Below, one piece after another: positions 1 through 1,194 of a stretch of DNA of 27,230 nucleotides. Both the position numbers and the translations under genes were made by a program. Source of the stretch: Candidatus Omnitrophota bacterium (lineage in GTDB: Bacteria; Omnitrophota; Gorgyraeia; Gygaellales; Profunditerraquicolaceae); assembly GCA_028687525.1 (NCBI GenBank), contig JAQTZX010000001.1, forward strand, positions 1-27,230, written 5' to 3'. How positions within the stretch are numbered: the stretch's first letter is position 1; each line of letters begins with the position of its first letter. The notes beneath the pieces were generated by a model that did not search any database, was not told the origin of the DNA, and saw nothing but the letters and a program-made list of their open reading frames with translations.

Positions 1-72
1 CTTCAGATTCGCTCCGTATATATTCCCAGCTACGGTTGCGCTGTTCTCTACCGTATTGTCCTGAATGGTCAC
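1..72 (-). pseudogene. In-frame continuation of the large gene beyond the TAG at 73-75 (VTIQDNTVENSATVAGNIYGANLK), open to the window edge
   Basis: Manual translation of 72..1. It completes a 33-aa repeat unit exactly in register with earlier units such as GTEVVSIKDNSVNGNDALE-GNVYAVNLK. Confidence 0.85.
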
Positions 73-1194
73 CTATTCCGTACCTTCAATCTTCGCCCCT
101 TCAGCGTTCATTCCTATAATGTTCCCTTTTCCGCTGTAGCTATCGGTAACCTTATTCGCCTCTATGGTCACGGTCTTACCGCCAATCTGTGCGGAAGCCA
201 GGTTGACTCCCATTATATTGCCTTCCTGAGTTGCGCTCCCGGAAACGGTATTATCCTTAATAACCACGGTGTCGCCGGCAATAATCGCCTTTTCAGCATT
301 CACACCCACGATAGTACCACTCAAAGTGACACCATCAATTACCTTGTTATTTTCTATAATAACGGTTTTGCCGTCCAAATCTACGCCGGTCAAGTCCACT
401 CCTATCACGTTGCCTTTTTCTGTACCGCTGACCTCAACCGTATTACCCCGGATTATAACAGTTTCCTCACCGTTCAGTTCCGCGTTCTTACTGTCAACCC
501 CCATGATATCACCATTGCCGCTGAAACTATTACTTACTTTGTTGCCTTCTATTACTATCGCCTTTCCATTTATCTGAGCCGCATTCACATCAACCGCCTT
601 TACATTTCCTACCAGCGTGGTACTTTCGTCAACGGTATTATCCTTGATAGAAACTACTTCAACGGCATTAATTTTTGCGCCCGCAGCGTTTACTGCCATG
701 ATATCACCTTGGCCGCTGACACTATCGTTTACTTTATTCCCCTCAATTGTAACAATCTTACCATCGATATCTGCATCCTTCAGATTAACCGCATAAACAT
801 TACCCTCAAGAGCATCATTACCGTTCACGGAATTATCTTTTATGCTAACCACTTCCGTACCTTTGATAATCGCATTTTCCGCATTTACCGCAATGATATC
901 CCCTCTACCGCTGGCGCTGTTTATAACCTGATTGCCTTCTATAACCACGGTCTTGCCTTCGATATCCGCGCCGTTCAGATTAACCGCGTATATACTCCCT
1001 TCCACCGCTTTGCTGTCCTCAACCGCATTATCTTTAATGATCAGGGAATCCAATCCCTGGAATGTCACGCCTTCATCGAAATTAACCGCTTCAACTTCAC
1101 CCTTCTCGCTCACGCTGTTCGTCACAACATTACCTTCTATGACGACCTTGCCGGATATATTCCCGTTCTTGAAATTAACCGCGCTTATATCGCC
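1..1194 (-). repeat. Alternating 32/33-aa beta-helix-type repeats (G[ND]IxAVNxxxAxIxGxxVxIxxNxV)
   Basis: About 12 units visible in the translation, diverged at DNA level. Confidence 0.85.

Follow-up and report, generated by a model that had tools for sequence, protein, structure and literature searches.

Does a long open reading frame in a Candidatus Omnitrophota genome end at its TAG codon, given that the repeat it encodes carries on in frame beyond that codon? The window (the whole stretch of DNA analyzed here, 27,230 nucleotides) is the entire contig C97 of a MAG (G000; 1.31 Mb, 177 contigs, 71% complete), with nothing beyond base 1. Close to that end, a minus-strand frame that starts with ATG and spans 1,869 codons (5682..76) is terminated by a TAG at 75..73 in the context ...GGT ACG GAA TAG GTG ACC ATT CAG GAC..., and the 24 codons that follow (72..1) are open up to the contig end. 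The features of this region are given below, with reference to the ortholog in a second Candidatus Omnitrophota MAG of the same genus (G001).

76..5682, minus strand: visible coding part of the putative giant gene, 1,869 codons, ORF from ATG to TAG
73..75, minus strand: in-frame TAG, one base off (T to A at window base 74, in the minus-strand sense) the TTG (Leu) of G001
1..72, minus strand: post-TAG codons (n = 24), continuing the repeat unit to the contig end, 87.5% nucleotide identity to the ortholog
1..1227, minus strand: repeat array, about 13 units of 32-34 residues (protein residues 1486-1894), by HMM and structure prediction
1282..1767, minus strand: NosD-type right-handed beta-helix, residues 1306-1467 (Pfam PF05048, 49.9 bits against a cut-off of 23.6)
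5794..5908, minus strand: c-di-GMP-I-GGC riboswitch aptamer in the 5' leader of the gene (RF03167, 68.5 bits, gathering score 59)

The Repeat Continues across the TAG

The codons beyond the stop translate as VTIQDNTVENSATVAGNIYGANLK, which resembles upstream units such as VVSIKDNSVNGNDALEGNVYAVNLK. When the units are written in rows of 33, the TAG occupies the column that holds V (GTE-V-VSIKDN) or T (GEE-T-VIIRGN) in earlier units. The original prediction had described a 33-residue unit completed in exact register; this holds for the V/T position of the stop but not strictly for the length, since the units measure 32-34 residues and are of two alternating types. Against a repeat HMM built solely from the ten units upstream of the TAG, and hence independent of the post-stop sequence, the stop-spanning unit (residues 1866-1894, with the TAG as X and shortened by the contig end) scored 32.9 bits (i-E 1.8e-12), compared with 44-55 bits for complete units and 31.0 bits for the orthologous unit of G001. 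With this score and the 24 open codons, the claim that the repeat continues past an in-frame TAG is confirmed.

At the DNA level the repeats are diverged and old (66-68% identity by self-blastn), and Tandem Repeats Finder detected no array in the repeat region. Because identity between repeats is only this high, the post-stop match represents conserved coding sequence and no fresh DNA duplicate. A mis-join with a paralogous repeat copy was considered as the source of the TAG and ruled out: the terminal 72 nt have their top DNA match at the orthologous position of G001 (87.5%), and the paralogous copy 387 nt away matches at 43% and carries TCA in place of the TAG.

The Sister Genome Encodes a Giant Frame

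Contig C20 of G001 is collinear with the window over 2..21343. At the position of the TAG, its ortholog has TTG (Leu), one T-to-A change apart, and the frame spans at least 5,034 codons, of which 3,103 lie past the site, and is still open at its own contig end. Since that frame stays open so far beyond the site, the window gene would be the front third of a giant gene, and we read it, from the comparison of the two genomes, as the 5' third of a giant (>5,000-residue) surface-fiber gene of Omnitrophota. The suspicion that the true gene exceeds 1,869 residues and may be giant is thereby borne out; the homolog, with a Leu at the site and an open frame after it, does not end at the same residue.

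Comparison of the 24 post-stop codons with G001 gave five synonymous and four nonsynonymous differences, with an omega of 0.25 upstream; the codons after the stop thus appear conserved like those before it, with no sign of decay. In G001, the array goes on for about five more units, followed by about 2,900 residues of Ser/Thr-rich linkers and Pfam-unknown domains. Pfam searches with three pieces of the G001 ortholog returned NosD only, and neither assembly reaches the 3' end of the gene. Using both the window protein and the full G001 ortholog as tblastn queries, only C97 was found in the bin, and the missing 3' part is absent from this 71%-complete MAG.

Sequences crossing the site were sought in several collections. 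Among GTDB genome contigs, only the sister genome G001 was recovered, and among 1.84 billion cluster representatives, the G001 protein was the sole close relative of the 33-residue array and no further sequence crossed the site. JGI metagenome contigs, searched with protein patterns and with an exact 27-mer in which the variable base was masked, contained no sequence across the site. A search of a 5.8-billion protein database, including the region spanning the site, returned nothing, which is weak evidence as the queries were probably swamped by repeat words. One conspecific fragment (P0002, 667 aa) covers residues 1-667 only, far short of the TAG.

Architecture, Fold, and Leader of the Gene

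The frame at 76..5682 encodes, in order, a signal-peptide-like N-terminus followed by a low-complexity, Ser/Thr/Asn-rich region, a cysteine-peptidase-like region, the NosD-type beta-helix, and the 33-residue repeat array. NosD is the sole Pfam family recognized over the 1,869 residues, the repeat array being unrecognized by any Pfam model, and a sequence search of the PDB gave no match. The riboswitch (RF03167, clan CL00126) lies directly upstream of the ATG at 5682, in the 5' leader, and scores above the Rfam gathering score.

For the final 460 codons, with the TAG set to Leu as in the G001 ortholog, AlphaFold2 predicted a confident all-beta solenoid (pLDDT 89.9, pTM 0.91) with a three-strand pattern and a period of about 33 residues. 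In this model strand 436-440, midway along the solenoid, begins with the TAG residue, and no cap or domain end lies at that point. All top matches in a structure comparison of the repeat array were right-handed beta-helices (Z 15-28); Foldseek alone gave weak matches only, to the same right-handed beta-helix class.

ORF Breaks Elsewhere in the Same Assembly

As a base-rate control, nonoverlapping G001 genes encoding at least 300 aa, taken from 817 kb of sequence, were compared with the G000 assembly, covering approximately 100,000 aligned codons. The following breaks were found in G000.

C64:4498-4500: TAA for TAT relative to G001, in a murF-type ligase gene, the only one in the mur cluster
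C143:~3657: 1-nt deletion in rpoD, with 97.5% amino acid identity after the shift
C154:3171: 1-nt deletion in the ETF-alpha gene relative to G001
C156:1620: 1-nt deletion (A7 to A6) in an M16 peptidase gene relative to G001
C104:5119: 29-nt deletion in fabF relative to G001
Window 11855-11857, plus strand: second single-base in-frame stop on the window contig, TAA for CAA (Gln) relative to G001

In the reciprocal test, about one such break was found in G001. Since it is unlikely that rpoD, murF, and fabF are all broken in a living cell, the G000 consensus must contain errors, and from these comparisons we estimate that an ORF is broken about once in every 40-50 kb of coding sequence. Most of the well-supported errors are 1-nt deletions, and substitution-type breaks (murF, the TAA at 11855) are fewer. 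The scaffolds contain 10-N gaps and a contig of the sister MAG is named cov_2.4; both fit short-read sequencing at low coverage, where the data are thinnest at the ends of contigs.

The TAA at 11855-11857 lies in a gene of unassigned function downstream of a second c-di-GMP riboswitch (9011-9146). Past this codon, the frame goes on for 43 codons in both genomes, with flanking identities of 0.92 and 0.88. The ORF at 10880-11857 was considered as full-length like its G001 ortholog and rejected, as the equal length results from different start points and the alignment shows the TAA to be premature relative to G001. Sitting in a nonessential gene, this TAA could itself be real.

Consensus Error or Nonsense Allele

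We consider the TAG to be probably a consensus error in an error-prone, low-coverage short-read MAG, judging from the genome-wide base rate. The gene would encode a secreted, c-di-GMP-riboswitch-controlled beta-helix fiber protein, with its 5' third in the window; the contig stops 72 bases past the TAG, which would be a single-base error (TTG read as TAG), and in the organism the frame would be continuous for thousands more codons. A consensus error is suggested by the TTG of G001 with its 3,103 further open codons, by the lack of decay after the stop, and by the position of the stop within the solenoid; it is favored over a real allele because of the other one-base ORF breaks in essential genes of this MAG. 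Several points speak against an error: real inactivating mutations often strike large surface-protein genes, the other supported errors are mostly 1-nt deletions with fewer breaks of the substitution type, and the searches yielded no second assembly over the site, the one conspecific fragment, P0002, not reaching it.

The alternative with the best remaining case, possible but the less probable of the two, is a real and very recent nonsense allele (TTG to TAG) in the population. The site is one base from the ortholog codon, TAG works as a stop here, and a recent event would equally predict no decay past the TAG. On the same contig, another riboswitch-led secreted-protein gene has a second nonsense codon, the TAA for CAA described above, which could mean relaxed selection. 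The product would perhaps be a truncated fiber of 1,869 residues, minus the last approximately five repeat units and more than 2,900 downstream residues, with the rest of the gene a young pseudogene tail. Against this, the breaks in rpoD, murF, and fabF cannot all be real, so that a break in this gene needs no biological cause; a stop 72 nt from the contig end would be a coincidence of about 1% if the two were unrelated; and tblastn recovered no more of the gene from the bin.

The original prediction had left nonsense allele, sequencing error, and readthrough side by side. Of these, an error now ranks above a real allele, and readthrough is without support.

TAG Is an Ordinary Stop in This Genome

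TAG closes 153 of the 719 ORFs of at least 250 aa in G000, and the next in-frame stop follows at a median of 16 codons after TAG, 20 after TAA, and 15.5 after TGA. No tRNA with anticodon CUA, UUA, or UCA was present among the 36 tRNAs found in the genome (71% complete), and prfA, encoding RF1, is present (478 bits against a curated cut-off of 423). TAG is an ordinary stop in the G000 genome.

It is consequently very unlikely that the TAG is partly read through or decoded (by programmed readthrough, a suppressor, or pyrrolysine-type recoding), giving a short and a giant product from one gene. What recommends this reading is that the downstream sequence is in frame and conserved, and that another G000 contig, C171, is a 15.3-kb open frame but for a single TAG, across which a distant homolog aligns over a few residues. 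It is opposed by the share of long ORFs that end in TAG and by stop-to-stop distances after TAG that are like those after TAA and TGA, by the presence of RF1 and the lack of a suppressor among the 36 tRNAs, and by the stop itself, which is unconserved and a plain Leu codon in the G001 ortholog. Moreover, the giant frames of relatives (5,039, 15,308, and 42,913 codons) are wholly stop-free, and the other in-frame stops of this MAG are TAA. Similarly slight is the chance of a real but leaky TAG, by which a c-di-GMP-switched fiber gene would yield a 1,869-residue form by termination and a >5,000-residue form by low-level readthrough, with the TAG of C171 as a second example.

Least probable, to the point of being negligible, is a true and long-standing gene end, with the following 24 codons a chance occurrence or a relic: the distance from stop to contig end is short and 24 codons would be open by chance in about one of three cases, but the stop-spanning unit scores 32.9 bits against an independent repeat profile, the G001 ortholog reads through for 3,103 more codons, and the stop lies within a beta-strand of a regular solenoid in the AlphaFold2 model.

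Contig C171 (15,349 b) is a second very long gene, consisting of one open frame (886 + 4,229 codons) save for the single TAG at 2659-2661. A methyltransferase-like region lies upstream of this TAG and TPR repeats downstream. In the alignment with a homolog in G005, only 4-5 residues are aligned across the TAG (LLxQDWL vs FLQQGWL); the downstream part sits inside the 15,308-codon frame in G034. The TAG of C171 may mark the border of a gene, or it may reflect an error or a gene that is broken. The stop-free frames of same-order relatives occur around G031:C2 ~471922-472200 (42,913 codons) and G034:C33 ~18947-19429 (15,308 codons).

Comparison with Known Giant Genes and Beta-Helix Proteins

Very long and giant genes have already been described in Candidatus Omnitrophota, and two papers on them state that in MAGs from short reads these genes are broken where contigs end (West-Roberts et al. 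2023, bioRxiv 10.1101/2023.11.21.568195; bioRxiv 10.64898/2026.06.07.730766); in-frame stops are mentioned in neither paper. Huge proteins are classed there as those >5,000 aa and giants as those of at least 30,000 aa (West-Roberts et al. 2023, 10.1101/2023.11.21.568195). The gene studied here resembles these in its Omnitrophota host and in its G001 ortholog, a frame that runs for at least 5,034 codons before its contig stops, has long beta-helical regions, and is mostly without Pfam domains; the window copy shows 1,869 + 24 codons against the at least 5,034 of the G001 frame, both being cut by contig ends. The Archaeovorin type is characterized by numerous transmembrane regions and a divergent SecA DEAD helicase domain, and the beta-helix described by the authors is an antiparallel tubule (10.1101/2023.11.21.568195; 10.64898/2026.06.07.730766). 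The visible architecture here is not of this type, in that no SecA/DEAD helicase domain and no multiple transmembrane regions were detected in the 1,869 + 3,103 residues covered, which do not extend to the 3' end of the gene in either genome, and the beta-helix is modeled as an ordinary right-handed parallel one, in contrast to the antiparallel tubule of those authors.

The best structural match of the array is the repeat region of EtpA (PDB 8vba; Z 27.8, rmsd 2.2 A over 312 residues), and the two have in common long, secreted right-handed beta-helix fibers with near-regular rungs. Unlike in EtpA and other two-partner-secretion adhesins, no Pfam family for the TPS (haemagglutination activity) domain was found at E <= 0.1 in the 1,869 residues, and sequence identity to EtpA is 13%, so this is a likeness of fold and not membership; the shared fold, as predicted, is no evidence of shared function. 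NosD/PbH1 proteins (PF05048) are matched above the cut-off by residues 1306-1467, and structural matches include NosD (7o0y, Z 19.9), alginate epimerases, lyases, and phage tailspikes; the downstream 33-residue array differs from them in matching no Pfam model. In its kind, the stop resembles the consensus errors and contig-end truncations of MAGs, as a one-base disruption 72 nt from a contig end, alongside the breaks in rpoD, murF, fabF, and the ETF-alpha and M16 genes.

Gene callers give a complete protein of 1,869 residues here, where in the sister species the same sequence opens a gene exceeding 5,000 codons; fragmented, low-coverage MAGs will make giant Omnitrophota genes look fewer and shorter than they are, and will yield false "complete" proteins. 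The control applied here, a tally of frame-breaking differences from a sister genome within essential genes, may be reusable for the triage of premature-stop findings. Most probably there is nothing new in kind at this locus: a giant gene of a type already known in Omnitrophota, with a stop that is an artifact or an ordinary young nonsense mutation. A real stop would amount to no more than a young surface-protein pseudogene of an ordinary kind; readthrough, in the unlikely event that it is true, would be the only reading of wider interest.

Further Observations on the Locus

Antisense to the repeat array, the plus strand of the window has a 763-codon open frame at 1-2292, which is most likely a shadow of repetitive codon usage and no gene.

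The G001 contig contains an internal near-duplicate of 214 nt (C20 8952-9165 and 9339-9552; 93.5% identical, copies 387 nt apart). Window 100-313 is the ortholog of one copy, and the other would fall 74-287 nt past the contig end; this near-duplicate just past the end is a plausible cause of the assembly break. As for assembler k-mer arithmetic behind the 73-base distance from variant to contig end, no common k value fits.

Around residues 4500-4600 of the G001 protein, ESWGAMASA occurs with a Gly/Ser-rich stretch, an echo of ESWGDMASA, which in the window protein comes after the cysteine-peptidase-like region (window ~3300-3340). This stretch, which the window lacks, may hold a second cleavage cassette; a second C39-like cassette was considered and rejected, as the short ESWG-x-MASA motif recurs with nothing significant by BLAST or Pfam.

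Divergence from G001 is a mosaic along the contig. For the beta-helix part of the giant gene (window 2-2952), identity is 92.7% without gaps and dS is 0.15-0.22; in the N-terminal portion of this gene dS is approximately 0.98, and neighboring genes (to 21343) range from 0.54 to 1.06. The sharp boundary near 2952-3220 suggests a recent recombination, or exchange, of the fiber module between the two species.
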